NCBI GenBank assembly: GCA_964535655.1
Contig: CAZHTP010000004.1
Span: forward strand, 75,108-139,107
Source of the DNA: an uncultured Gammaproteobacteria bacterium
GTDB taxonomy: Bacteria > Patescibacteriota > Microgenomatia > JALYQM01
Length of the DNA: 64,000 nucleotides
Direction of reading: 5' to 3'
In this document: positions 2 through 44,150 of the stretch, piece by piece
Numbering within the stretch: position 1 is the first letter of the stretch
Layout: every line of letters starts with the position of its first letter
The notes under the pieces: model-generated
Told to the model about the DNA's origin: nothing
Seen by the model: the letters and a program-made list of their open reading frames with translations, nothing else
The model's database searches: none
Translations under genes and position numbers: made by a program

Positions 2-148
2 GGGCGCAGAGCTGATGTTTTACGAATTGTACAACCAACAGAAAGACTTGAGGAAGCCTATGCGGGCAAAGTAGGACCTTTATCTGTGGTAACTCAGACC
101 ATGCTTATTCATTGTTTAACAGCTGAGGCTAGTGGTGGCTTGCGTTAA
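2..148 (+). CDS. 3' end of an upstream gene (partial, enters from window edge); hypothetical protein C-terminus
   Basis: Open frame 2 from the window start to TAA at 146-148 (…RADVLRIVQPTERLEEAYAGKVGPLSVVTQTMLIHCLTAEASGGLR*). Its end overlaps the pepF stop convergently by 4 nt. No family recognised. Confidence 0.3.
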   Translation, partial: GRRADVLRIVQPTERLEEAYAGKVGPLSVVTQTMLIHCLTAEASGGLR

Positions 149-1983
149 ATTTTGCCTAACTTTTTTGCCAGCTTTTCAGTCTCATTTAGTAAATTTTCAA
201 TTTCATCTAGTCCTTTGTTCCAAAAATTTTTGTCGGCAATATTAACATCCATTTGGGCGAATATGCTTTTAGGAGAGGAGGATGTTCCGGATGAGAGGAA
301 TCCTTTTACTTTTTCAATAAAGGAATGATCTTTTTTGACCGAACTTTGTAATGACTTTGAAATTAATAGGCCGCTGGCGTAGGAATAGACATAGAAGAAT
401 GAGCGGATGTGTGACCAGTACACCCACCAGTTTTGTCCTCCTTTAGATTGCTCAACAAAATCTCCCATATACGCCTTCATGTTCTTAGTAAAGATTTCTC
501 CGATATTTTCTTTGGAAAGGTATCCCTTTTCGCGGAATGCTGCGTGTAAATCCTGCTCAAATTTATAGCAGGAGACTTGTCTAAAGATCGAGGAAACATC
601 GTCGTTTAATTTCATCATCATGATAGCAAGTTTGGTTTCATTGTCTGAGTCTTTAAGGAGTTCCTGTAGTACGAAATCTTCCATAAAGGTGCTTGCAACC
701 TCAGCAGTTGATGTTGGTGTGCCAAAGTTTAGGGCATTTTGTTTTTCTTTCATGAGCTCATCGTTGATACCGTGTCCAAATTCATGGGCTATTGTTAGCA
801 CGTCGTTGAGTTTTTTGGTGAAGTTAAGAAGCACATAGGTTGGTTGAGACTTTAAATTGTAGGCACAGAATGCACCACCACGTTTCCCTTTATTGGGCAT
901 GGCGTCAACTTTACCGGTTTCGACAAACATTTTAGCGATTTGGGCAAATTGAGGGTCTAGCTGAGTGAAAACATGATAGACTAAATCTACCGCTTCCTGA
1001 TACGAATAGGTTTTGTCGATTGCACCATATTCGACATTGCGTTCATGGTAGGCTAGTTTTTCTTGTCCCATTAATTTTGCTTTGAGTTGGTAAAACTTGT
1101 TCGGGATCATATTGCGTGATGAGACTGCCTTGATTAGTGCGTCGACAACGTCGGTTTCGATATCGTCTGCAAGGTGCCTTGCTGTATCCGGGCGTCCCAT
1201 GCCTCGTAGATCGTCGTTTATTTTTTTATTTCCAAAGATTGAGTTTAGTTCATTTTCCGCAACCTCCGCCCATTTAGCATTAATTGTATCGAAGGCTTGA
1301 GCGGCGCTGTCGCGCGTTTCCTTATTTTTTGATGAGGTAAGGGTGGCGATTTCGGAGAAGTTTTTAACTTGTTTGGTGCCATCCTCAGTGATAACTTCGG
1401 CTTCTTCTTTCGAAAGAAAGGTTGAGGTCATTTTTACCCAGTTGTAATGTGAAGTGGTGGCTTTAAGATTTAAGATTTTTTCTTCAGGCTCGCTTAGTAA
1501 ATATTTAGATTGTTTAAAGAGATTTTCTAAATAGTGCTTATATGGCGCAAGGGAACTATTTGCGAGAAATTTCTCTTGCTGATTTTCTGGGATTTTTGAG
1601 ATACGCATCTCGAAAAATTGGATATCGTTTAAGATTTTGTTGGCAAAATCTTCAAGCTGATTTTCTTTGGCTTTCAGTTCAGGGCTTATTGAATCCTGGG
1701 AGCTGCGGAGTGAGAAATAGTAGCCAAAATTACCTGAAGTGCTTGTGTAATGCTGCCAGTTTTCAAATTCATCGAGAGCTTGTTTGAGCAGTGCCGGTTG
1801 TTGTAAATAATCTTCACGGTCTTTCCATTTGTTTATAAAACAATATGATTCTTCGGTAACTTTTTTCTTTTGTTCTTCAAGTTCTGGTGAGTTGTCTGAT
1901 GTGAGGAGGGGGGAGAGATCCCAGGTTAATTTTGAGGTGTTTAGCTTTGTCATATTCTTAATTATACCATTTATTTGGGGCAT
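145..1983 (-). CDS. pepF: Oligoendopeptidase F (M3B zinc metallopeptidase)
   Basis: 612 aa with the HEXXH zinc site in the context TIAHEFGHGINDE; length and overall layout typical of the M3B PepF family. Confidence 0.8.
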   Translation of the reverse strand: MPQINGIIKNMTKLNTSKLTWDLSPLLTSDNSPELEEQKKKVTEESYCFINKWKDREDYLQQPALLKQALDEFENWQHYTSTSGNFGYYFSLRSSQDSISPELKAKENQLEDFANKILNDIQFFEMRISKIPENQQEKFLANSSLAPYKHYLENLFKQSKYLLSEPEEKILNLKATTSHYNWVKMTSTFLSKEEAEVITEDGTKQVKNFSEIATLTSSKNKETRDSAAQAFDTINAKWAEVAENELNSIFGNKKINDDLRGMGRPDTARHLADDIETDVVDALIKAVSSRNMIPNKFYQLKAKLMGQEKLAYHERNVEYGAIDKTYSYQEAVDLVYHVFTQLDPQFAQIAKMFVETGKVDAMPNKGKRGGAFCAYNLKSQPTYVLLNFTKKLNDVLTIAHEFGHGINDELMKEKQNALNFGTPTSTAEVASTFMEDFVLQELLKDSDNETKLAIMMMKLNDDVSSIFRQVSCYKFEQDLHAAFREKGYLSKENIGEIFTKNMKAYMGDFVEQSKGGQNWWVYWSHIRSFFYVYSYASGLLISKSLQSSVKKDHSFIEKVKGFLSSGTSSSPKSIFAQMDVNIADKNFWNKGLDEIENLLNETEKLAKKLGKI

Positions 1984-2152: not shown

Positions 2153-2794
2153 ATGAGATCTTCTGAAGACACTTCAGCAATGTTACAAAAACTGGAAACT
2201 GTGTATGGAGATGTTGAAGCGTTTTTGCATCACAAGTCGCCTTTTCAATTGCTGGTTGCCGTGATTTTATCTGCACAAACCACTGATATTTTAGTTAACA
2301 AAGTAACGCCTGCATTGTTTGAAAAATATCCTGATCCCGCTTCTTTAAAAAATGCTCCCGTAGAGAATGTAACTTTTTTGGTTAACAGGATAAATTATTA
2401 CAAAACTAAAGCAAAAAATTTGATTGGGATGGCAAAGCTTATTGATGAACAGTTTGGAGGGGTGGTTCCGCAAACTATTGAGGAGTTAGTTATATTGCCT
2501 GGAGTGGGGCGTAAAGTTGCTAATGTGATTGTGGGAGATATTTTTAAAAAGCCTCTAGGAATTGTTGTGGATACACATATTAAGCGGGTTTCCTATCGTG
2601 CAGGTTGGACGGAAGCGGTTGATCCGAAGAAAATTGAACAGGATTTAATGCAGCAGTGGCCTTTATCGTATTGGGTGGAAACTCCAAAGCGGATGATTTT
2701 GGTAGGCAGGCAGTATTGTTTTGCAAATAAGCCTCCTGATTGTGGACATTGTCCACTACGAGAGTTGTGTTGGAAACGAATTACTCAATCATAA
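2153..2794 (+). CDS. nth: Endonuclease III (DNA glycosylase/AP lyase)
   Basis: HhH-GPD signature [16 protein letters not shown]-terminal 4Fe-4S cluster motif C-x6-C-x2-C-x5-C ([18 protein letters not shown]). 213 aa. Confidence 0.85.
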
Positions 2795-4871: not shown

Positions 4872-5046
4872 ATATATTTACTTTATTTTGAAGAATTTGC
4901 TGCTCGAAAATTTGAAGTTTAAGGTTTCCTACCTTTTAGTTTTTTTGCTCTCGGGCTTTGCATAAGTGAATCCAGGACGGATGCAAATTTTCTGCGCTAC
5001 AAAATTCTCCAAAATCTGAATAATTAAAAATATTATAGAATATTTT

Positions 5047-5080
5047 GTCAAATTTGGCAATCTCCTATTCTGAGTGCTAA
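5047..5080. promoter_or_regulatory. Putative heat-shock operator upstream of clpB (CIRCE-like inverted repeat, overlapping a CtsR-like GTCAAA element)
   Basis: TTGGCAATC-N9-GAGTGCTAA at 5054-5080 matches CIRCE (TTAGCACTC-N9-GAGTGCTAA) in 16 of 18 positions with the exact 9-nt spacer. The overlapping tGTCAAAtttGGCAAt at 5047-5062 loosely resembles a CtsR heptad repeat. It lies about 185 nt upstream of the clpB start. Confidence 0.3.
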
Positions 5081-5163
5081 TACGTCTGCGACTTATTTGC
5101 TTTAGAGTAGCAGTGCCGCAAAAGGTGTGGACGTTTACTCAGTGATTTTGATACAGTAGAGGC

Positions 5164-5358
5164 ATGCAAGAGATGGTTGATGCTAAAAGCTATCGAGAAG
5201 ATCCGTATATGGATCAATTGGAGGGGCAAATAGTTCATAAACAAGTGCGAGAATATTTTACTGATAGTATGTTGTTCTTTGTGATCTTTTTTTTAGGTGT
5301 AATTATTTTAGGCGTTGTGTTAGGTATTTATGGGGCTCTTTACTTTACCTCGAAATAG
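5164..5358 (+). CDS. Small hypothetical protein with C-terminal transmembrane helix
   Basis: 64 aa ORF with a hydrophobic C-terminus (FFVIFFLGVIILGVVLGIYGALYF), immediately upstream of the rhodanese gene. Confidence 0.3.
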   Translation: MQEMVDAKSYREDPYMDQLEGQIVHKQVREYFTDSMLFFVIFFLGVIILGVVLGIYGALYFTSK

Positions 5359-5401
5359 TCTCATTCTTCACATTTTCCTCTCTTTTTAGTAAAATACGTG
5401 C

Positions 5402-7208: not shown

Positions 7209-8590
7209 GGCCGCAAGCTCGTAATTTAATAGCATTCTTCTTTTTGCCTTTTGTGCTTGTTTATGACATAGCAAAGTCACAAAGACTTCCTTGGAAAAAA
7301 TTTCTTTATATACTTTTTGTTTTCGTTTTTTTTGGTTCGATTTGGTGGGGTGGGTATAATCGCGTAATTGATCCGGTATATGCTCATTATTTCCCTAAGA
7401 AGGCTGCTCCAGCATCTAAGTTTGGACCTCCTGATTCAAAAGATTCTTGGAAAGTTCCAGTGATTGGTACATCAATGTTACCAACGATCCAAACTCCAAC
7501 AACGGTCACACTTTATAATCCTAAAAAATATGGTCTAGAGCGATTTGATATTGTCTCACTTAAGAATAATCAAACAGATGGTCGTTATTATATGAAACGA
7601 ATCATTGGTATGCCTGGTGACCATTATTCAATTAAGAATGGATATGTAACGATTAATGGACAGATACTTAAGGAGCCATATGTTCTTAATGAGTTGCCTA
7701 CATATGGGAATTCGGCACTATCTGACTGTGAGGACTATCTTGTACCAGAACACTCATTTGTAGTGATGGGTGATAATCGTACTGTAAGTCAGGATTCGCG
7801 TATTATTGGGTTTGTCGATCGCGCGGATATTGAAGGAGTTATAAAGGTTCATTTGAAAGTTTCGTATCTTTCGCCAGACGAAGCCAAAAATGTACTAGTA
7901 AAAAGTGTTGATGCTAAGAAATTTGTTGAACTACTTAACTCTCATCGGGATGCTTCAAGAAGTGGTACGTTACGATTGAGTAGTAAGTTAAATGGGGTTG
8001 CTTCTAAACGAAGTGTTATGGTTCGGGATCAATTTGATTCTTGGAAAAAACTGCAATTGCCGGTCGATCAAACCCTGGAAAAAGAAGGGTATCGTTTTAA
8101 TCTTTCGCATGAATATGTGACGTTTGGTTATCTTGACGAGTCTGCTTTATCTAATCAAATACTTGAATCGGTAAAAGAAAAGGACGAGTTTTTATCTGGT
8201 AAATATCTTGATGTCGGTGTTGGAACAAGTGAACGGGTAGTCGGATCTTGCACGTATCCTGTTATAAGTGTGATTTTAGGTTGGCCAAGTAATCCCGATT
8301 ATCCTAAAGCAACAATAGATTCGTGGAAGCAAGAGATGGATACAACGGCACAGAATCTTAAATATCTACAAAGTTTTGTCGGAAATAGCTCCTACGATCA
8401 AATAAAAATTCGTCGCTATATTACTCTTGAAGCAAAAATGAATGAGATCTCAACACGATTGTATATGCGAACTAAAAATAACCAGTGGTTTACTGATGCA
8501 GATAATCGGGACTTTGATATGAACGAAAAATTAATCCAAGAGACAAACGCACTGGATCGGGATTTATTTTCTGATACTTATAAAAATTAA
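7205..8590 (+). CDS. lepB: Signal peptidase I (S26) with an approximately 250-aa C-terminal extension
   Basis: N-terminal TM; catalytic Ser box SMLPTI; Lys box KRIIGMPGD; conserved GDNRTVSQDSR. The SPase domain ends around residue 210 and 250 further residues follow. Confidence 0.8.
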   Translation: MRPQARNLIAFFFLPFVLVYDIAKSQRLPWKKFLYILFVFVFFGSIWWGGYNRVIDPVYAHYFPKKAAPASKFGPPDSKDSWKVPVIGTSMLPTIQTPTTVTLYNPKKYGLERFDIVSLKNNQTDGRYYMKRIIGMPGDHYSIKNGYVTINGQILKEPYVLNELPTYGNSALSDCEDYLVPEHSFVVMGDNRTVSQDSRIIGFVDRADIEGVIKVHLKVSYLSPDEAKNVLVKSVDAKKFVELLNSHRDASRSGTLRLSSKLNGVASKRSVMVRDQFDSWKKLQLPVDQTLEKEGYRFNLSHEYVTFGYLDESALSNQILESVKEKDEFLSGKYLDVGVGTSERVVGSCTYPVISVILGWPSNPDYPKATIDSWKQEMDTTAQNLKYLQSFVGNSSYDQIKIRRYITLEAKMNEISTRLYMRTKNNQWFTDADNRDFDMNEKLIQETNALDRDLFSDTYKN

Positions 8591-10353: not shown

Positions 10354-11556
10354 ATGTATAAACCAAGTGATGAAACGTTGCAGAAATATGCAGACTTGTT
10401 AATTAAATTTGCGTTAGGTGGAGGAAAAGGTGTTAAAAAGGGTGAGGTTGTCTTTATGACAATTCCTGAGTCGGCAAAAGATTTTATTGCCCCTCTTCGT
10501 CGATCGGTGCTTTCTGCTGGTGCTCATCCACTCTTTCACTATCTTCCCGATGATGTTCAGGCGCGCGAATTTTACGAGTTGGCAAATGATTCTCAACTTA
10601 CTTTTTTTGCAGATAAAATGTACCGAGGAATAGTTGAACAAGCTGATCATACACTCCGTATGTTATCTGAATATGATAAATATGAATTTAAGGGTGTGGA
10701 TAGTAAAAAATTAATGAAATATAGTAAAGCACAAAAGCCGTATACCGATTGGAGATTTGAAAAAGAGAATAAAGGGAAATTGACGTGGGTGCTTGCCAGT
10801 TACGGAACAGAGGCAATGGCAAAGGATGTGGGAATGTCGCTTGAAGCGTATTGGGATCAGATTATTAAAGCTTGTTATTTAGATTTAGATGATCCAATTG
10901 CGCGATGGAAGGAGATTTTTAAAGAGCAGGAACGGCTGAAGAAAATACTGAGTGATATGAAAATTGAACAGTTACATGTTGAGGGCGAGCGTACTGATTT
11001 GTGGATTAAACTTGGGGCAACACGGAAATGGCTTGGTGGATCTGGGCGTAATATTCCTTCTTTTGAACTTTTTGTCTCGCCCGACTGGCGTGGTACTAAC
11101 GGGAAAATATATTTTAATCAGCCATTGTATCGGTATGGTAATAGGATCAGGGATATAACTTTGCAGTTTAAAGATGGGGTAATAGTTGAAGCAACAGCAA
11201 GTGAAAATCAACAGTTATTGCGAGATATGATCGCTGTTGCTAACGCGGATAAAATCGGTGAATATTCGTTAACCGACGGTAGAATGTCTCGCATTACCCG
11301 TTTGATGGGTGAGACATTGTTTGATGAAAATTTTGGTGGAGAGCAGGGTAATACTCACTTAGCGGTGGGAATGGCCTATAAGGATTCGTATGTTGGAGAG
11401 ATGGCGCTGGTAACTCCAGAAGAATGGAGTGAGATGGGGTTTAACGATAGTGCTATTCATACGGATATTATTTCTACTGAGAAACGAACTGTAACGGCAA
11501 CTTTGCCTGATGGGTCGATAAAGGTTATCTATACTGATGGAAAATTTGTAGTTTAA
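10354..11556 (+). CDS. Aminopeptidase, M29 (AmpS/PepS/aminopeptidase T) family
   Basis: 400 aa. N-terminus MYKPSDETLQKYADLLIKFALGGGKGVKKGEVV matches the M29 family start. GGAGAG RBS 7 nt upstream. Confidence 0.7.
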   Translation: MYKPSDETLQKYADLLIKFALGGGKGVKKGEVVFMTIPESAKDFIAPLRRSVLSAGAHPLFHYLPDDVQAREFYELANDSQLTFFADKMYRGIVEQADHTLRMLSEYDKYEFKGVDSKKLMKYSKAQKPYTDWRFEKENKGKLTWVLASYGTEAMAKDVGMSLEAYWDQIIKACYLDLDDPIARWKEIFKEQERLKKILSDMKIEQLHVEGERTDLWIKLGATRKWLGGSGRNIPSFELFVSPDWRGTNGKIYFNQPLYRYGNRIRDITLQFKDGVIVEATASENQQLLRDMIAVANADKIGEYSLTDGRMSRITRLMGETLFDENFGGEQGNTHLAVGMAYKDSYVGEMALVTPEEWSEMGFNDSAIHTDIISTEKRTVTATLPDGSIKVIYTDGKFVV

Positions 11557-11573
11557 ATTCCTTTGATATGTTT

Positions 11574-11664
11574 TACGTCGACACGCTTAACGCTTCGCTT
11601 TGCTCTGCGTTTAGAAGCTCCACTCTGCCATTCGCGGTTTGGCAGAGAGGGTCGACTTAAAAAC
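11574..11664. repeat. Intergenic structured repeat, copy B (see copy A at 2031-2117)
   Basis: Same core sequence as copy A. The internal hairpin here is ctctgcc/ggcagag, a different sequence from copy A with preserved pairing. Flanked by the palindrome GTCGAC…GTCGAC. Confidence 0.5.
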
Positions 11665-11678
11665 ATGCTTTCAGGAAT

Positions 11679-12980
11679 TTATATATTGTCTTGAATAGAT
11701 TTCCAAATTTTCTCTACTCCGTGAGGAGATAGTTCTTCGGTTTCGGTGTATGTTTTGTAGTTTTGCATAGCTAGAAATATTCCTGCTTTAAACGCATTGG
11801 TTAAAAATTGTGCGGCTTTAATTGGGTTGACGGGTAGTTGTAACGCTCGCCAGCTATGTGCTTCATTTTTGAACGGACCGGGTGTTAATGGGCATTGCGT
11901 AGTGCAGAGGTATTCGTTTAATTGCTGTTGCCTTTCGTCGTTGGGTAAAAAGCCAAAACGCTTTAAGTAATTAAGATTATCGTATTCCTGACGTCCAACC
12001 GGTTCGGATAAGAGTAAGATTGGACCTCCTATGGTATCCGGGGTTGTTAAAACTTTAAAGCATTGTTCGGATGGCTTGGTTATTTCGAGTGACGGCGGAT
12101 TGAGTTGCTCAAAGAGTTTATCGTAGAGTTGGACTGTTTGAAAATCGTTTGCGCCAATATGAAAAACTACTTCGGGATTATCTCGAAAATACTCTATAAA
12201 CGGCTTAGTGTAATTGCCTTCTCTTGTTGTTATTGAAAATTTAAATTCGCGATGCTTGATTCTAATTTTTTCACTGGTTAATTCGTCGATTAGTGTTTTG
12301 TAATAAGCCAGTTGGACTGCTGCACCGCTTATTGGAATGCTGATTCTCGCTTTTTGTGGGTTTTGGGGTGTTACTTGTTCTACTTTGTTATATAAAATTG
12401 GTGGATCTAGTTTTTGAAAGTATTTTGGGCTAATAGGATATGGAGTAACTACAATATTAGGAACTGAGAGGTGCTCGTCTTTAAATAATGTGTTTAATTT
12501 ATTTTTAGTTTGTTTGCTCGGGACAAAAATAGTATCTGCTTCGACCATCCAAAATCTTTGAGGTGAATCATCGGTTACGATTACAGCATGAAATATCGGG
12601 ATTGGGATTTTTTTATGTCGAATTATACGGGCAATTTTTTGAGCAATAAAAGCGTGCGTAGAGACGATAACTAGTTTGTCAGGATTATCGGTAGCAATTA
12701 TTTTTTGGATCTGATTAATTGTTTCTTCGATTTTTTGCACTTGCATGTAGGTTAGAAGCGGCGTAACTATTTTTTCTGCGGTGGAGTTGGTTTGGGTAAA
12801 TTCCAGTATTTTCCTTAAATAGTAATTAGTGCTGATGAGGTGATAGATAAAAGATATTGATTCGTCCTGAATTCCCATGATGTGAGCATTTGTACCTTCG
12901 GGAAGTCCTGCAAGTAAGGCGTTCGTAACTCTAATATGGCCTAGGCCGGTGGGTGCGGTGGTAATGATTATAGCGGGCAT
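11679..12980 (-). CDS. GT-B fold glycosyltransferase, GT28/MGDG-synthase-like (possible glycolipid synthase)
   Basis: N-terminal glycine-rich TAPTGLGHI resembles the GT28 (MurG/UgtP) G-loop. C-terminal …SEPVGRQEYDNLNYLKRFGF resembles the GT-B donor-binding helix. No exact family match possible by eye. Confidence 0.4.
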   Translation of the reverse strand: MPAIIITTAPTGLGHIRVTNALLAGLPEGTNAHIMGIQDESISFIYHLISTNYYLRKILEFTQTNSTAEKIVTPLLTYMQVQKIEETINQIQKIIATDNPDKLVIVSTHAFIAQKIARIIRHKKIPIPIFHAVIVTDDSPQRFWMVEADTIFVPSKQTKNKLNTLFKDEHLSVPNIVVTPYPISPKYFQKLDPPILYNKVEQVTPQNPQKARISIPISGAAVQLAYYKTLIDELTSEKIRIKHREFKFSITTREGNYTKPFIEYFRDNPEVVFHIGANDFQTVQLYDKLFEQLNPPSLEITKPSEQCFKVLTTPDTIGGPILLLSEPVGRQEYDNLNYLKRFGFLPNDERQQQLNEYLCTTQCPLTPGPFKNEAHSWRALQLPVNPIKAAQFLTNAFKAGIFLAMQNYKTYTETEELSPHGVEKIWKSIQDNI

Positions 12981-13078
12981 GGTATTAGTATAGCGGCTAT
13001 TTTATTGATGTTGCTAGATACCTCTATATTGTAGGACTTATTGCTTCGGTTTTTCGGACATGCTACAGTGGAGTAACT

Positions 13079-19814: not shown

Positions 19815-19830
19815 GTAATGTGAATTCGTG

Positions 19831-19870
19831 AAAAAGGATAGTGTTATTTTGTAGCGCTATCCTTTTTTTG
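19831..19870 (+). terminator. Rho-independent terminator after ppa
   Basis: Stem aaggatag/ctatcctt (8 bp) around a 15-nt loop, followed by TTTTTTTG. Confidence 0.6.
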
Positions 19871-23094: not shown

Positions 23095-25176
23095 TTAAAG
23101 AAGAATTCGTGCATCTAAGGCGATTATCCCGTTTTCTGTGACGGAGAGAGGATTTATGTCGATCTCCTGGATTTCAGGGTAGGACAAGGCGAGGTTGGCT
23201 ATACTTAAAATGGCTTGTACTATTGGCTCGGAGTTTAGGACTTCTTTACCGCGGTACCCATTTAGAATTTGAAAAACCTTGGTTTCTTCAAGCATTGCTT
23301 GTGCTTGACTTTTGGTGATTGGGGCTATGCGCGCTGCTGTGTCGCTGTAGAGCTCGGCATAAGTTCCACCTGTTCCTACAACAATTACTGGGCCAAAAGT
23401 AGGATCGCGCTTCATGCCAAGCAATACTTCGATGCCAACAGGCATTTGTTTTTGAATATAGATAGAATTGTTCGGAGAAGGATTTTTTTTAATTAGCCCT
23501 GCGAGTTGCGTGTAGCTTTCCTTTATTTGAGCCTCATCTCTCAGATTCAAATATACGGCGTGTTGTTCAGTTTTGTGTACAATTTTTTCTGAGGATACTT
23601 TCATAACCACCGGAGTTCCCATTGCTATTGCTTTTTGAACTGCATCGTGAGCAGATGTAACAACCTCACTCCTAGGAAAAGTAATGGCGGTTCGCTTAAA
23701 AATTTGTTCAACTTCATCTTGTGATAGTGTGCTTCGGTTTTCATTTTGAACTTTTTTCAGAATTGTTAGCTGATGAGCATCGGGTAAATGGGTAATGTTT
23801 TGTAGCGGAGGTAATAACTTTAATTGTAACTTCTTTTGAGAGAATTCCCACATTCGTGATAATACATAGACTGCCTGTTCGGGGAAGGTATAACACGGGA
23901 TATTATTTTGAGTAAGGGTATTTGTCGCTTCTGCTACGAGTGTTCCCCCTAGAAAAGCTGCGAGAATTGGCTTGTTCGTTTGCTTAACATGCTTCACTAT
24001 ACTTTGCGCGGTTAGTTCAATTTCTGTTGACGATTGAGGAGTTACTATAACTATACAGGCATCGACGGTATCTTCATTTATTACTGTGTGTAATGCGTGA
24101 TCGTAACGATCTACTTTTGCGTCGCCAATGAGATCGATAGGATCATGGATATTGGCTTCGCGAGGTAGATGTTTACTTAATTCTTGCTGTGTTTTTTCGG
24201 AGATTGGCGCAAGTTGTAGCCCGCTAGTTTCAAGTGCATCGGTGGTAATTATTCCTGGTCCCCCTGCGTTCGTGATTACCGCGATCTGGTTTCCTTTAAG
24301 CTCAGGTAAATTGGAGAAAGCTTTTATCAGGTCAAATAATTCATTAGTAGTGTTAACGCGTAAAATTCCAGTTTGTTTTGTTGCAATAGTAAGTACCTTA
24401 TCTGATCCGGTTAATGATCCGGTGTGTGACTTTACTGCAAGGGCGGCTTTTTCACTTTTCCCTGGCTTTAATAATACTACTGGTACCTTTTGGGTAATAT
24501 TCTGAGCAAGAGACATGAAATTCCTCCCATCAGATATTTCCTCTAAATAGAGCGCTATTACTTTTACTTTTTCAGGTATCTTTTGAAGAAAATGATCTTC
24601 AGTAATTATGGCTTTGTTGCCGAGCGAGATGAACTGACTGAAACCGATATGATGGTTCGATGCCCAGTCGATGGCTGCTGTTCCGAATGCGCCCGACTGG
24701 GACAGGAATAGTATATTTCCGTTGGCTGGCATTTCTGCTGCAAATGATGCATTTAAATTTTTTCCAGGGATGATAATTCCTAAACAATTGGGTCCAAGAG
24801 CTGGAATTTTTGCACTAATTAATTTCTGTTTAATACGTTCTTCCAGAGCTTTACCTTCCAAACCACTTTCTTTAAAACCTGAGGTTATGATGATAATAGA
24901 GCCGACATTTTTTTGAATACTTTCATCGATGACAGATTCAACAAGTTGTTGCGGAATAGCTATAATTGCCAGGTCGATTTTATCTGCATACTCCGTGATT
25001 GAGGCTAAGGATTGATGTCCCTGAATAATTTCTTTTTTAGGATTGACCGGAATAACTGTTCCAGGGTAATTGCTTTTGAGCAAATTTGAAAGTATTTGTG
25101 CGCCAATTTTGTTCGGGTCACGTGATGCTCCAATTATTGCGATAGATTTTGGTTCAAGAAGGGGCAAGAGATCCAT
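23095..25176 (-). CDS. Acetyl-CoA synthetase (ADP-forming), fused alpha/beta (NDP-forming acyl-CoA synthetase)
   Basis: N-terminal CoA-binding Rossmann (KSIAIIGASRDPNKIGAQIL), succinyl-CoA-synthetase-like flavodoxin domain, C-terminal ATP-grasp. 693 aa. Confidence 0.8.
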   Translation of the reverse strand: MDLLPLLEPKSIAIIGASRDPNKIGAQILSNLLKSNYPGTVIPVNPKKEIIQGHQSLASITEYADKIDLAIIAIPQQLVESVIDESIQKNVGSIIIITSGFKESGLEGKALEERIKQKLISAKIPALGPNCLGIIIPGKNLNASFAAEMPANGNILFLSQSGAFGTAAIDWASNHHIGFSQFISLGNKAIITEDHFLQKIPEKVKVIALYLEEISDGRNFMSLAQNITQKVPVVLLKPGKSEKAALAVKSHTGSLTGSDKVLTIATKQTGILRVNTTNELFDLIKAFSNLPELKGNQIAVITNAGGPGIITTDALETSGLQLAPISEKTQQELSKHLPREANIHDPIDLIGDAKVDRYDHALHTVINEDTVDACIVIVTPQSSTEIELTAQSIVKHVKQTNKPILAAFLGGTLVAEATNTLTQNNIPCYTFPEQAVYVLSRMWEFSQKKLQLKLLPPLQNITHLPDAHQLTILKKVQNENRSTLSQDEVEQIFKRTAITFPRSEVVTSAHDAVQKAIAMGTPVVMKVSSEKIVHKTEQHAVYLNLRDEAQIKESYTQLAGLIKKNPSPNNSIYIQKQMPVGIEVLLGMKRDPTFGPVIVVGTGGTYAELYSDTAARIAPITKSQAQAMLEETKVFQILNGYRGKEVLNSEPIVQAILSIANLALSYPEIQEIDINPLSVTENGIIALDARILL

Positions 25177-40182: not shown

Positions 40183-41955
40183 ATGACTTTTAAAGAATTA
40201 GCACTGTTTTTCTCAGAGCTTGAATCTACTACTAAGCGGCTTGAGTTAATCGATATTTTATCCCGCTTATTCGTTACTATAAGTACACCCAAAGAAGCAA
40301 AAAAAATAACCTATTTACTTCAAGGTAGGGTAGCGGCTTTCTATGAGCCTATAGAGTTTGGTATGGGTGATCGGTTAATTGAGCGGGCTATCGCTTTGGC
40401 GTATGAAGGTGATGTAGAAGGAGTTCACAACTTGTATGGCAAGCTTGGTGATTTGGGTCTTGCTGCTGAAGAAATGGCGAAAAAAAATGGTAAACACTTA
40501 ATAAGTTTATCTATTGATGAGTTATTTGAACAATTACAAATGGTTACCCGTACAATGGGTGAAGGGGCAGTTGAGGGAAAAGTTGAGGTATTATCACAGA
40601 TATTGCTTCATAGTGATCCGAATGCTGCAAAATTTGTCGTGCGGATTGTCTCTGGGCGGCTACGCCTTGGCATTGGTGATCCAACGGTGCTTGAGGCGCT
40701 TGCCAATGCGCGGTTGGGTGACAGAAAACATCGAAAAGAATTAGAACGTGCTTATAACGAGATTAGTGACCTTGGCCTTATTGCTGAAGCTCTTTGGGAA
40801 TATGAAGGTGATATAGCTTTACGTATCGTTGAAAAAATGACTGTTACGGTAGGTAGACCGCTTCGATCGGAGTTGTGTGAACGACTCCCCAACGCTGAAA
40901 AGACGATAGAGAAAATGGGCGAAGTTGTTTCTCAATTTAAATATGATGGTTTCCGAACACAGATGCATCTTGATAGAAAATCTGGTTTAGTGAAGTTATA
41001 TTCCCGAAATTTAGAGGAGACTACCCATTCTTTCCCCGAGATAACAAAGGGGATTTTGGATCAAGTTGATGCTGATTCAGTTATTCTCGACTCTGAAACA
41101 TTGGCATATCATCCGGAGTCAGAAGAGTTTTTCCCTTTTCAAGAAACTACTAAGCGCCGGAGAAAATATGGCATAGAAGAGATGGCCGAGGAGTTACCCC
41201 TGCGGGCGTTTGTATTTGACATTCTGTATAAGAATGGCGAGTCGCTTGTACAACTTCCTGTACGTGAGCGATTAAAAATACTCGATTCTACTATTAAAAA
41301 AAATGTAGATCCAACTCGCGCTGATACGCTTATTGTCTCAGAGTCGCGTGTTATTTCTGTAGCCAAAGATCTTGGATTGATGTTAGAGGAGGCTCTCACT
41401 AAAGGACTTGAAGGCATTGTTGTTAAGAAAATTGAGTCGTCATACGAAGCTGGTGCACGTAATTTTAACTGGGTAAAACTGAAACATACTGCTTCAGAGC
41501 AATTGAAGGATACAGTTGATTGTGTGGTGTTAGGTTATATTTATGGTCGTGGAAAACGGGTTGCGTTTGGAGTAGGTGCGTTACTTGTTGGTCTTTATGA
41601 TAAAGAGCGCGATGTCTTTGTTTCAGTCTCCAAGATAGGGACCGGATTGACCGATGCTGAATGGGTTTCAATTCGTGAACGATGTGATGCTTTTGTTTCT
41701 AAGGAGAAACCCGCTCGGATTGAATCGGATATTATTCCTTCGGTGTGGGTTGAACCTGAAGTAGTTATCGAAGTGCTGGCAGATGAAATTACTCGATCTC
41801 CCTCACATACTGCAGGAAAAACTACCACTGAACCTGGATATGCTTTACGTTTCCCGCGGCTTGTTACGTTTCGTGACGCCGATAAACGACCAGAAGATGC
41901 TACTAATATCGATGAAATAAAAGAACTATATTCAATGCAGGGAAAGAGGGCGTGA
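40183..41955 (+). CDS. ATP-dependent DNA ligase (archaeal/eukaryotic-type)
   Basis: Adenylation motif I KYDGFR; motif IV EGIVVK; motif V WVKLK; OB-fold C-terminal domain. 590 aa. Confidence 0.8.
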   Translation: MTFKELALFFSELESTTKRLELIDILSRLFVTISTPKEAKKITYLLQGRVAAFYEPIEFGMGDRLIERAIALAYEGDVEGVHNLYGKLGDLGLAAEEMAKKNGKHLISLSIDELFEQLQMVTRTMGEGAVEGKVEVLSQILLHSDPNAAKFVVRIVSGRLRLGIGDPTVLEALANARLGDRKHRKELERAYNEISDLGLIAEALWEYEGDIALRIVEKMTVTVGRPLRSELCERLPNAEKTIEKMGEVVSQFKYDGFRTQMHLDRKSGLVKLYSRNLEETTHSFPEITKGILDQVDADSVILDSETLAYHPESEEFFPFQETTKRRRKYGIEEMAEELPLRAFVFDILYKNGESLVQLPVRERLKILDSTIKKNVDPTRADTLIVSESRVISVAKDLGLMLEEALTKGLEGIVVKKIESSYEAGARNFNWVKLKHTASEQLKDTVDCVVLGYIYGRGKRVAFGVGALLVGLYDKERDVFVSVSKIGTGLTDAEWVSIRERCDAFVSKEKPARIESDIIPSVWVEPEVVIEVLADEITRSPSHTAGKTTTEPGYALRFPRLVTFRDADKRPEDATNIDEIKELYSMQGKRA

Positions 41956-43040: not shown

Positions 43041-44150
43041 ATGCAACTCAAAAATCTTCTTATAGGGGGAAGTGTCGGACTGGCCTTTTTTGGCCTATAC
43101 TTGCATTCAAATATTTCCGCTCATGCTGCTACGAAGACTATTACAATTCTTAATTCGGCATTTTCTGATAGTTTAGCCATTGTAAATGCAGGAGACACTG
43201 TAGTTTGGCAAAATAATGACACTTTTGGACATCGTTTAGATATCTTAAATGCATCAGATAGTTCTTTTCTGGCTGGAGATGATCTTAGTCCAAAAGTGTC
43301 TACTTCTACTTCAGGAAGAACTTTGTCAAGAAAATTTAATACTGAAGGTTTATTTATTTATCGTTTGGATCAGCAAGCAAGTATGTCGGGAACTCTTACC
43401 GTAGTGCCATCGATAGTAGTACCGACGGTTACACCATCGGCAACCGCTACCGCAACAGCAACGGCGGTGCCCACCGCTACTGCTACCGTAACACCAACGC
43501 TAACGCCTACTGCTTCACCTACTCCAAGCGTTACTGCGACGGCTTCACCAACCGCAACTCCAGCTTTATCTCCAACGCCGTCGCCTTCCTTAACACCTTC
43601 ACCAACACCAACATTGACTCCTACACCAACAGTTACGTCTACTCCTAGCGCAACTCCTACTGTTACGATAACAGCAAGTCCGACTGTTAGTCCATCGGCT
43701 ACTGCATCACCTACGCCAACACCATCGATGACTGCTAGTCCGACTACCTCGCCAACATCTTCACCTACGGCAACACCTACTAGTTCAATAACACCTTCAC
43801 CAACAAGTACGCCGGTTCCTCCTGTAGGGGAAGTTTTACCTGCATTTTCAGTCTTCAGACCAACAATGTGTAGCGCGTTATTGATAACAAACAATACTCA
43901 AATTCGAACTGATAAACTGGGTGCGGTTACGTTGCGAAGAGGTATTTGGAATGTAGAAAACTTGGTTAATACTCCGCCTAACGTATCTGTACAGGCTCGA
44001 TTAATTGCGATTCGAACAGTAAATTTACTTTTCGGGAATAATCCGTTTTTTGGTTTAGATCGAACCGTTTCAGCAAATACCGCAAGTACTTTCAATGCCG
44101 CATCGGTTGAAGGCGCGTTACAAAAAGCAGCTCAAGCTTGGTGCAAATAA
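43041..44150 (+). CDS. Secreted protein: signal peptide, cupredoxin-like beta domain (no Cu ligands), long Pro/Thr/Ser/Ala linker, C-terminal globular domain
   Basis: Signal peptide MQLKNLLIGGSVGLAFFGLYLHSNISAHA. Plastocyanin-like stretch GDTVVWQNNDTFGHRLD but no Cys/Met ligand set. About 130 aa of TPTxTP repeats. Confidence 0.5.
   Translation: MQLKNLLIGGSVGLAFFGLYLHSNISAHAATKTITILNSAFSDSLAIVNAGDTVVWQNNDTFGHRLDILNASDSSFLAGDDLSPKVSTSTSGRTLSRKFNTEGLFIYRLDQQASMSGTLTVVPSIVVPTVTPSATATATATAVPTATATVTPTLTPTASPTPSVTATASPTATPALSPTPSPSLTPSPTPTLTPTPTVTSTPSATPTVTITASPTVSPSATASPTPTPSMTASPTTSPTSSPTATPTSSITPSPTSTPVPPVGEVLPAFSVFRPTMCSALLITNNTQIRTDKLGAVTLRRGIWNVENLVNTPPNVSVQARLIAIRTVNLLFGNNPFFGLDRTVSANTASTFNAASVEGALQKAAQAWCK
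43430..43830 (+). repeat. GC-rich low-complexity tandem-repeat DNA encoding the PT linker
   Basis: Reiterated ac(a/t)cc(a/t)ac(g/a)… units (aca cca acg cta acg cct act gct tca cct act…). The antisense ORF 43370-43894 is an artefact of this repeat. Confidence 0.5.

Follow-up and report, generated by a model that had tools for sequence, protein, structure and literature searches.

A 126-nt palindromic repeat with a conserved branched tip and stems that change in pairs at two intergenic sites of an uncultured bacterium

We analysed a 64,000-nt stretch of DNA from an uncultured bacterium (contig CAZHTP010000004.1; hereafter the window) and, within it, a structured non-coding element that occupies two intergenic sites as copies A and B. 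Comparison with related genomes revealed that the element was inserted relative to outgroups, was inherited vertically, changed in ways that preserved its structure, and was removed in part from one site by a deletion at microhomology. Its helices P1, P2 and P3 have changed by paired substitutions only, and the sequence of the module at its tip has been kept. The explanation that best accounts for these observations, and that we hold with middling confidence, is an insertion-derived palindromic repeat of the kind of miniature inverted-repeat transposable elements (MITEs) or REPINs, acting as a folded single strand or as a cruciform. On present evidence this is a solid but ordinary finding and not a new kind of system.

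Copy B covers positions 11555–11680 of the window and copy A positions 2012–2137, both on the plus strand. When the two copies were folded independently, each unit came to exactly 126 nt; the limits are also backed by fold z-scores and Logan contig L030 for copy B, and by spacer comparison and Logan contig L007 for copy A. Independent Logan assemblies of run SRR8893623 reproduce both copies with 100% identity, so these are not assembly artefacts. Inside the units lies a sequence-conserved core of ~85 nt common to both (11574–11660 in B, 2031–2115 in A), having a GC content of 48–55%, compared with 23–36% in the arms and 38% in the genome. The earlier note on this DNA had described an element of ~90 nt; it had located the conserved core correctly, but the true unit extends to 126 nt and includes an 18-bp closing stem. 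In the window, repeat finding, short-word blastn, nhmmer and a covariance model with filters off gave no copies besides A and B.

The two copies reside in different gene contexts, and the gene calls agree with the convergent (B) and divergent (A) arrangements noted before. Copy B occupies the entire spacer from the stop codon TAA (11554–11556) of an M29 aminopeptidase gene (10354–11556, plus strand) to the stop codon TTA (11679–11681) of a gene for a 433-aa MGDG-synthase-like glycosyltransferase (11679–12980, minus strand). Copy A is flanked by pepF (145–1953, minus strand) and nth (2153–2794, plus strand). Each of these two genes has a conserved TATAAT/TACAAT box 5–8 nt from its start codon, both in the window (1959–1964 and 2142–2147) and in four relatives (contigs L031, L011, L032 and L034), which suggests back-to-back promoters and leaderless or very short-leader pepF and nth mRNAs. 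Copy A is inserted between the two boxes. Its 3' arm stops 4 nt upstream of the nth TATAAT box and occupies the −35 position of nth. Because it lies between two conserved −10-like boxes near the start codons, copy A is probably outside both flanking mRNAs.

As a single strand, the element is predicted to fold into a long AT-rich closing stem, P0 (18 bp), topped by a GC-rich three-way junction of helices P1, P2 and P3. The dot-bracket structures obtained for copies A and B nearly coincide, both consisting of 8 bp, a 2-nt bulge on the 5' side, 10 bp, and then P1, P2 and P3. The junction strands are 2, 1 and 0 nt long, and the 5' half of the three-way junction is nearly invariant. In copy B, the 5' arm of P0 (11555–11574, plus strand like all arms given here; 8 bp, 2-nt bulge, 10 bp) pairs with the 3' arm (11657–11680), and the 5' arm of P1, GTCGAC (11577–11582), pairs with 11651–11656, where GTCGAC recurs, as had been reported, at the other edge of the copy. 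P2 (11585–11618) is formed by GCTTAACGC (11585–11593) pairing with GCGTT (11607–11611) and AAGC (11615–11618) around a TAG bulge. P3 (11620–11650), the hairpin flagged earlier, reads CC-A-CTCTGCCA, a 9-nt loop, and TGGCAGAG-A-GG. The corresponding parts of copy A are the P0 5' arm (2012–2031; AGACTTTC, tc, GCTGAATACT), which pairs with the 3' arm at 2113–2137; the P1 5' arm CGAC (2036–2039), which pairs with 2107–2110; P2 (2042–2075), where GCTTAACGC pairs with GCGTT and AAGC around a TA bulge; and P3 (2077–2106), which reads CT-G-CTTCGTCA, an 8-nt loop, and TGACGAAG-A-AG. The 3' arms of P0 were delimited by the fold together with the alignment of the flanks as inverted repeats.

The stem of P2 has the identical sequence in A and B, and the two copies differ at its tip by a paired indel (a GGC/GCC mini-helix in A versus GC/GC in B). 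The conserved tip module can be written as GACACGCTTAAYGC ... TTTA(G)AAGCTC ... GGTTTG ... GGTC. Both strands of the element fold equally well. With DNA parameters, the z-scores were −6.0 (plus strand) and −6.5 (minus strand) for copy B and −5.2 and −5.9 for copy A, and no shuffled sequence folded as stably. Calculated as RNA, the hairpin reaches −45 to −47 kcal/mol. Among the ~86 pairs there are two wobbles, both of them G.T on the plus strand of copy B, and none occurs on the minus strand.

We compared the two copies pair by pair. The P3 stems, CTTCGTC (2080–2086)/GACGAAG (2097–2103) in A and CTCTGCC (11623–11629)/GGCAGAG (11641–11647) in B, and the loops of 10 and 11 nt ending in GGTTT, are as the earlier note described them. 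So are its three stem positions changed on both arms with pairing kept, to which a fourth compensated pair (T-A to C-G) can be added, located in the 2 bp that extend the stem below a conserved 1x1 mismatch. Of the 25 core pairs in a hand-corrected alignment, 20 are identical, four are Watson-Crick double transitions (all of them in P3), and the remaining pair is C.T in A and T-A in B; one-sided changes are absent. The differences thus occupy 10 paired columns that make up exactly five pairs, for which random placement, C(25,5)/C(50,10), gives ~5e-6 by our own calculation. The paired changes are far beyond chance, and the view that copy B is not a decaying duplication holds. These statistics rest on few sequences and a partly manual alignment.

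The closing stem behaved differently from the core. In each copy, the ~20 nt on either side are inverted repeats of one another, and their sequence differs between the copies: AGACTTTC-tc-GCTGAATACT ... AGTATTTCAGC-ttc-GAAAGTCT in copy A and AAATTCCT-tt-... ATGTTTT ... AAAACAT ... AGGAATTT in copy B. Local alignment of the left flank with the reverse complement of the right one scored 12 (A) and 11 (B), values reached at 0.0002 and 0.0017 of random window positions. In their natural ungapped register, the P0 5' arms of A and B show seven identities, nine transitions and three transversions, so that they agree as purine or pyrimidine at 16 of 19 positions (empirical P ~0.002), compared with 8–13 of 19 in other registers. 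Taken as pairs, five are unchanged, eight are double transitions, three are double transversions and two have gone to a G.T wobble. MAFFT misplaces the P2 3' and P0 3' arms, and these P0 tallies come from the independent folds and an ungapped manual register along the 5' arm. The equal length of 126 nt, the superimposable folds and the shared purine/pyrimidine pattern establish P0 as homologous between the copies and integral to the element; nearly all of its sequence has been replaced, and it is still paired.

A third full copy, A', was recovered from contig L031 (Logan ERR8482628), where it is the orthologue of copy A in the same pepF–nth spacer and in the same orientation. It is 147 nt long, and a covariance model trained on just A and B picks it up with 61.5 bits (E 1.7e-15). 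All copies, A' included, have one orientation, and the known set consists of three full copies and one remnant at two loci in two or three genomes. A' folds into an outer 10-bp helix, an internal loop and a perfect 13-bp helix, ATTTTCTAGAGAC/GTCTCTAGAAAAT, followed by the same AC junction. Its P2 carries a compensated C-G to T-A change, the TAG bulge of copy B and a tip loop of 29 nt, so that the P2 tip loops of the copies measure 13, 14 and 29 nt. Its P3 is CT-A-CTTTGCC/GGCAAAG-A-AG. In the three-sequence alignment of 22 core pairs (with four P2 cells of copy A treated as gaps), 98.4% of the cells are paired, and there are five double-sided changes and no one-sided ones. When the partners were slid by 1–3 columns, pairing dropped to 33–52% with zero or one double change, and the observed values were matched by 3 of 500 shuffles. 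Every single-pair change in P3 or P2 is a transition. The third sequence thus adds support to the secondary-structure constraint proposed earlier, and A' brings no unpaired, random substitutions into the stem.

The A/A' comparison also provides a measure of how much else has changed at this locus. Between the window and L031, the PepF protein is 91% identical and four-fold degenerate sites of pepF are 52% identical, and the pepF–nth spacer outside the element gives no alignment beyond the promoter-like box. In the conserved core blocks (58 columns, counted by hand on the alignment), A and A' are ~83% identical, B and A' 88%, and A and B 81%; six of the ten differences between A and A' are the two sides of compensated pairs. 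Judged by these identities, copy A is the most derived, and the split of the paralogues is not much older than the split of the species. One period of insertion is suggested, because the paralogue split is so little older than the species split. In P0, the helix partners are re-registered between A and A', and A' has its perfect 13-bp stem where A and B differ and are imperfect. This change looks like block-wise copying from arm to arm and not like successive single compensations. In the A/A' pair, one fixed locus thus shows compensated substitutions with rare clarity, next to block-wise rewriting of palindrome arms, which helps to tell selection on structure apart from template-switch mutation.

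Next, we examined relatives of the window organism. Three of them, syntenic and at 78–84% PepF and 84% M29 identity (GCA_964403585.1, GCA_964462765.1 and a Logan contig of SRR18933249), have the element at neither orthologous site (3 of 3). Their pepF–nth spacers measure 46, 46 and 58 nt, compared with ~199 nt in the window, and homology between the window and contig L011 restarts at GAGTTATA, right after position 2137. Their M29/glycosyltransferase spacers consist of −4 nt (an overlap), 23 nt or an unrelated 146-aa open reading frame (ORF), compared with 122 nt in the window. The inserted entity was the whole 126-nt unit, because the extra spacer length matches, the L011 homology restarts after 2137, and copy B spans from stop to stop. 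The 146-aa ORF (L011, 11211–11651) has no Pfam hit; as this extra ORF shows, the M29/glycosyltransferase spacer has taken different insertions in different lineages.

Two contigs are closer to the window: L031 (PepF 91% identical) and L035 (GCA_020050275.1; glycosyltransferase 91%, M29 94%). L035 retains the 3' third of copy B alone, TAG|GTTTGGCAGAGAAGGTCGACTTAAAAACATG...|TCA, which matches window positions 11640–11671 at 30 of 32 positions. The deletion removed 83 nt (11557–11639) and has GTTT microhomology at both of its ends. From this distribution, the window organism, L031 and L035 descend from an ancestor that carried the element at both sites. Insertion at two or more intergenic sites falls after the split from the 78–84% relatives and before the split at ~91–94%; since then, one site has conserved the element and the other has lost most of it, with the flanking genes unharmed.

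We searched for known identities of the element. No Rfam family matched anywhere in the window at its gathering score, and in E-value mode (up to E = 10) the sole match at the two loci was 7SK, at E 0.24 and far below its threshold. ARAGORN found no tRNA or tmRNA. Neither a sigma-70-type promoter belonging to the element nor an intrinsic terminator (GC-rich stem and T-run) was detected at either locus; the base of the stem is AT-rich, with no clean T-run after it. No conserved ORF is common to the copies, whose ORFs are wholly different, and A' has none; a 37-aa ORF called on the Logan contig across copy B (11553–11666, minus strand) is not conserved in A or A' and was dismissed as spurious. 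There was no match by blastn against plasmids and phages, nor by distant-mode blastn against 5,426 Escherichia coli genomes. An exact 18-mer compared with one genome per GTDB species gave six unrelated chance matches, and two scans of viral contigs gave chance matches only. A gapped pattern run against JGI metagenomes retrieved one eukaryote-like contig, L008 (Ga0208853_1004193), which we treated as chance. This AT-rich contig, which bears a Rab-like GTPase fragment, has at 1082–1167 a 31-nt match to the P2 region and, inverted ~70 nt away, TTTTACGTCGA; it is without P3 and the junction fold, and its 11-mer is unexplained. As these collection scans were exact or near-exact, the absence of matches elsewhere is weak evidence. 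A single literature search on Patescibacteria-like organisms found no description of such an element.

By its properties, the element resembles REPIN, ERIC and Correia-type repeats, but it is a member of no named family. It shares with MITE-type repeats its size, its non-coding and intergenic nature, its presence or absence among relatives and its long imperfect hairpin, and like MITEs it is dispersed as non-coding copies, at two window loci that are both empty in three relatives. The terminal inverted repeats of MITEs are binding sites of a transposase. In contrast, our element has no terminal inverted repeats common to the copies, since its ends pair within each copy and are unrelated among A, B and A'; its tip is branched, and no parent insertion sequence is known. 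Its length is within the range published for such repeats (ERIC ~127 bp, Correia/CREE 104–157 bp, RUP 107 bp, Nezha 130–170 bp; MITEs 104–170 bp; PMC3184786). The same source describes stem-loops in Borrelia that derive from IS200/IS605 and persist without a transposase, one class of them being conserved in structure with base-pair compensatory changes (PMC3184786). These motifs are likewise stand-alone and adjoin gene ends; however, they are simple hairpins of 32–51 nt from a known insertion-sequence end, whereas our element is three times longer, branched and without a known parent.

The comparison with REP sequences is similarly mixed. E. coli genomes carry ERIC, REP and BIME elements, and the element has no sequence match among the E. 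coli genomes searched, which sets it apart from ERIC. REPINs are REP doublets that form hairpins and are mobilised by RAYT transposases. The element is, like them, intergenic, ~100 nt in size and able to form a long hairpin on either strand. Unlike in REPINs, its halves are not inverted copies of one unit: P2 (GCTTAACGC) is unrelated to P3 (CTYYGYC), and no inverted copy of a conserved 24-mer is present in the 3' half of the element. It also lacks the GTAG/CGTC tag, the tetranucleotide beside P1 being CGCC in A, CGTC in B and CTAG in A'. Its tip is a three-way junction, and no consensus unites its palindromic flanks. The ~75 kb inspected showed no RAYT gene. The P2 loop of 13–29 nt differs from the 4–5 nt of CGTC REPs (PMC3733652). 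Some REP dimers (Halothiobacillus neapolitanus CGTC-1 and Anabaena variabilis GTAG-15) are always embedded in palindromes of 41–52 bp that are never found empty (PMC3733652). As a mobile repeat, the element would have an unusual layout, with a conserved branched tip and free-running stems.

The origin of the paired changes deserves separate consideration. The earlier note took them as a signature of selection on secondary structure; the changes are real, but compensatory changes are also common across REPIN hairpins (PMC3116915). Because template switching within the hairpin can likewise yield paired changes in palindromic DNA, these alone are no proof of selection on an RNA. In quasipalindromes, template switching makes one arm match the other and extends the identity of the arms (PMC7202029, PMC3820800). 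This process fits the perfect 13-bp stem of L031 and the rewritten, always-paired closing stems, but it leaves the conservation of the tip and the all-transition changes in P3 and P2 unexplained.

Several traits point to a folded DNA as the form in which the element acts: the strand-symmetric folding, the two wobbles among ~86 pairs, the GC-rich core contrasting with arms that drift to the host composition, the dynamics of P0 and the position of copy A. The form that matters would then be single-stranded DNA, during replication or mobilisation, or a cruciform. A trans-acting protein, for instance a transposase or its domesticated relative, may use the conserved tip as its recognition module. 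The stems would need only to pair, and they might be kept paired partly by selection and partly by template switching within the hairpin. Copy B, if it is co-transcribed at the 3' ends of two convergent genes, may incidentally buffer the ends of their mRNAs. A number of observations, on the other hand, weigh against a MITE- or REPIN-like repeat. Two loci only are known, so a high copy number is unproven, and neither ~10 kb of extra flanks nor ~60 kb from the 78–84% relatives contained a copy. The ends of the 126-nt unit bear no TA or other target-site duplication, and the scanned window ORFs yielded no transposase or integrase domain. Conservation peaks at the centre and is weakest at the ends, opposite to the pattern of MITEs and REPINs. 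The ~83% identity of the A/A' core, compared with 52% at four-fold sites of pepF and an unalignable spacer, points to constraint in place, which would be lacking in a purely selfish fixed copy. Finally, the all-transition changes in P3 and P2 form the pattern expected of stepwise compensation through wobble intermediates, as in RNAs.

This last point leads to the main alternative, a small structured non-coding RNA, either stand-alone or a cis-acting module, whose paralogues arose by duplication or insertion and whose junction binds a protein or a ligand. An invariant junction and P2 together with covarying P3, P1 and P0 is a pattern typical of RNA, and this idea also gains from the double transitions that make up all changes in P3 and P2, from the G.T wobbles confined to the plus strand of copy B, from the single orientation of every copy including the orthologue, from the conservation of the A/A' core in place (~83% versus 52%), and from a P2 tip loop that varies (13, 14, 29 nt) as peripheral RNA loops do. 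Nothing in the sequence data indicates the discrete transcript envisaged by the earlier note, however: there is no detectable promoter or terminator and no Rfam match even at E = 10, copy A sits upstream of both flanking −10-like boxes, the two strands fold equally well, and G.U pairs are nearly absent. The perfect 13-bp AT-rich stem of L031 and the re-registered helices fit DNA palindromes better, copy B is largely deleted in the sister lineage, and all of the 78–84% relatives do without the element. We therefore regard an RNA as possible but rather unlikely. Somewhat less probable still, in our estimation, is an undescribed structured module maintained by the host, be it a non-coding RNA of ~126 nt or a structure in single-stranded DNA that is recognised and has a three-way junction of invariant sequence. 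Such a module would be particular to a small, probably Patescibacteria-like clade of uncultured bacteria and would have spread by insertion into intergenic spacers before coming under purifying selection in place.

The host may instead use the element as a DNA-level cruciform or hairpin site, whose tip is bound by a nucleoid protein, a regulator or a recombinase, with effects on promoters or topology. Copy A would suit such a role, being conserved in place between back-to-back promoter-like boxes with its 3' arm at the −35 position of nth, and so would the strand-symmetric folding and the invariant inverted repeat of P2 (GCTTAACGC ... GCGTT-AAGC). But copy B is flanked by two stop codons, and a promoter is not expected in such a place; no functional theme unites the two contexts (a peptidase and a DNA glycosylase versus an aminopeptidase and a glycosyltransferase); the relatives manage without the element at both sites; and no candidate binding protein is encoded alongside. 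We think this unlikely, and more unlikely again that the element is a bidirectional terminator or a stabiliser of mRNA 3' ends that is under selection for that role. It is true that copy B fills a convergent spacer, that its strong hairpin (−45 to −47 kcal/mol as RNA) would stop 3' exonucleases and that A/T-rich sequence follows the stem on both strands. However, the "terminator position" pointed out earlier did not translate into a terminator, as the GC-rich stem and clean T-run are missing and the base of the stem is AT-rich. Moreover, the genes on either side of copy A and of its orthologue diverge and have promoter-like boxes, which leaves nothing to terminate there, the window has nine convergent gene pairs of which five overlap or abut without a hairpin, and two-thirds of copy B is deleted in the sister lineage. 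A chance resemblance, or a neutral duplication decaying without structural constraint, would draw on the small data set (three full copies only, few sequences, a partly manual alignment), and we find it barely credible in view of the 10 differing columns that fall into exactly five pairs (~5e-6), the slid-partner controls at 33–52% paired, the z-scores of −5.2 to −6.5 with no shuffle as good, and an independent third copy with the same fold at E 1.7e-15.

What the element would mean depends on which of these explanations is correct. If it is a mobile repeat of the MITE or REPIN kind, it would represent a family of small structured intergenic repeats in an apparently Patescibacteria-like lineage; Patescibacteria-like organisms have reduced genomes. 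A module maintained by the host would make it a mobile functional RNA or DNA motif and not genomic junk, and a functional RNA would be a new motif with covariation support.

Some further candidates were tried and rejected. One was a mobile unit of only the ~83-nt core, inserted with TA target-site duplication at the TA of the loop of an existing AT-rich palindrome. It was discarded because the 126-nt units superimpose, the arm patterns agree, the extra spacer length equals the whole unit, and empty palindromes are rare: comparable ones number 12 in the 64 kb of the window, mostly in coding sequence. The TA...TA pair itself sits inside the unit, at the P0/P1 boundary. A Logan contig break at the 5' edge of copy A (2018–2044, 27-nt overlap), considered as a hint of more copies, proved uninformative because a similar break with a 28-nt overlap occurs inside an ordinary gene (7819–7846). 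Hammerhead and other ribozymes were ruled out, as there is no Rfam match and the junction strands are too short for a hammerhead core. A Y RNA, a tRNA-like structure, outward promoters and a type I toxin or small-protein repeat (such as QUAD/Sib or Ldr) were dropped for want of a match in the scans or a shared ORF. An integron attC site does not fit by inspection either: GCTTAAC lies inside P2 and not at the ends, no 3' GTTRRRY is present, and no integrase turned up among the scanned window ORFs.

We also made a few observations on other parts of the window. The spacer from which the glycosyltransferase gene and rpiB diverge (12981–13078) is ~88% identical to L035, with four-fold sites of the flanking genes at 52–69%, and L011 and L012 also preserve parts of it; it could serve as a conserved promoter or regulatory region or encode a small RNA. 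Another spacer (4872–5401) is ~70% conserved over ~200 nt in three relatives, and a small ORF of 63–64 aa without a Pfam hit was called at ~5164–5358 in L007, L011 and L012. A 369-aa ORF at 43041–44150, also without a Pfam hit, has degenerate internal repeats (43495–43805) spaced by multiples of 6–12 nt and is probably a repetitive low-complexity protein. The window further encodes an archaeal/eukaryotic-type ATP-dependent DNA ligase (40183–41955) and an ADP-forming acetyl-CoA synthetase-like protein (23095–25176). The nearest named homologues conflict, being from Pelagicoccus for M29 and from Patescibacteria or Woesebacteria for the glycosyltransferase and PepF. The ligase and the synthetase-like protein, together with the homologues named as Patescibacteria, hint at a candidate-phyla-radiation-like organism. 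Perfect hairpins are rare in the window; a terminator-like hairpin with a T-run is located at ~19830–19870, after a pyrophosphatase gene.

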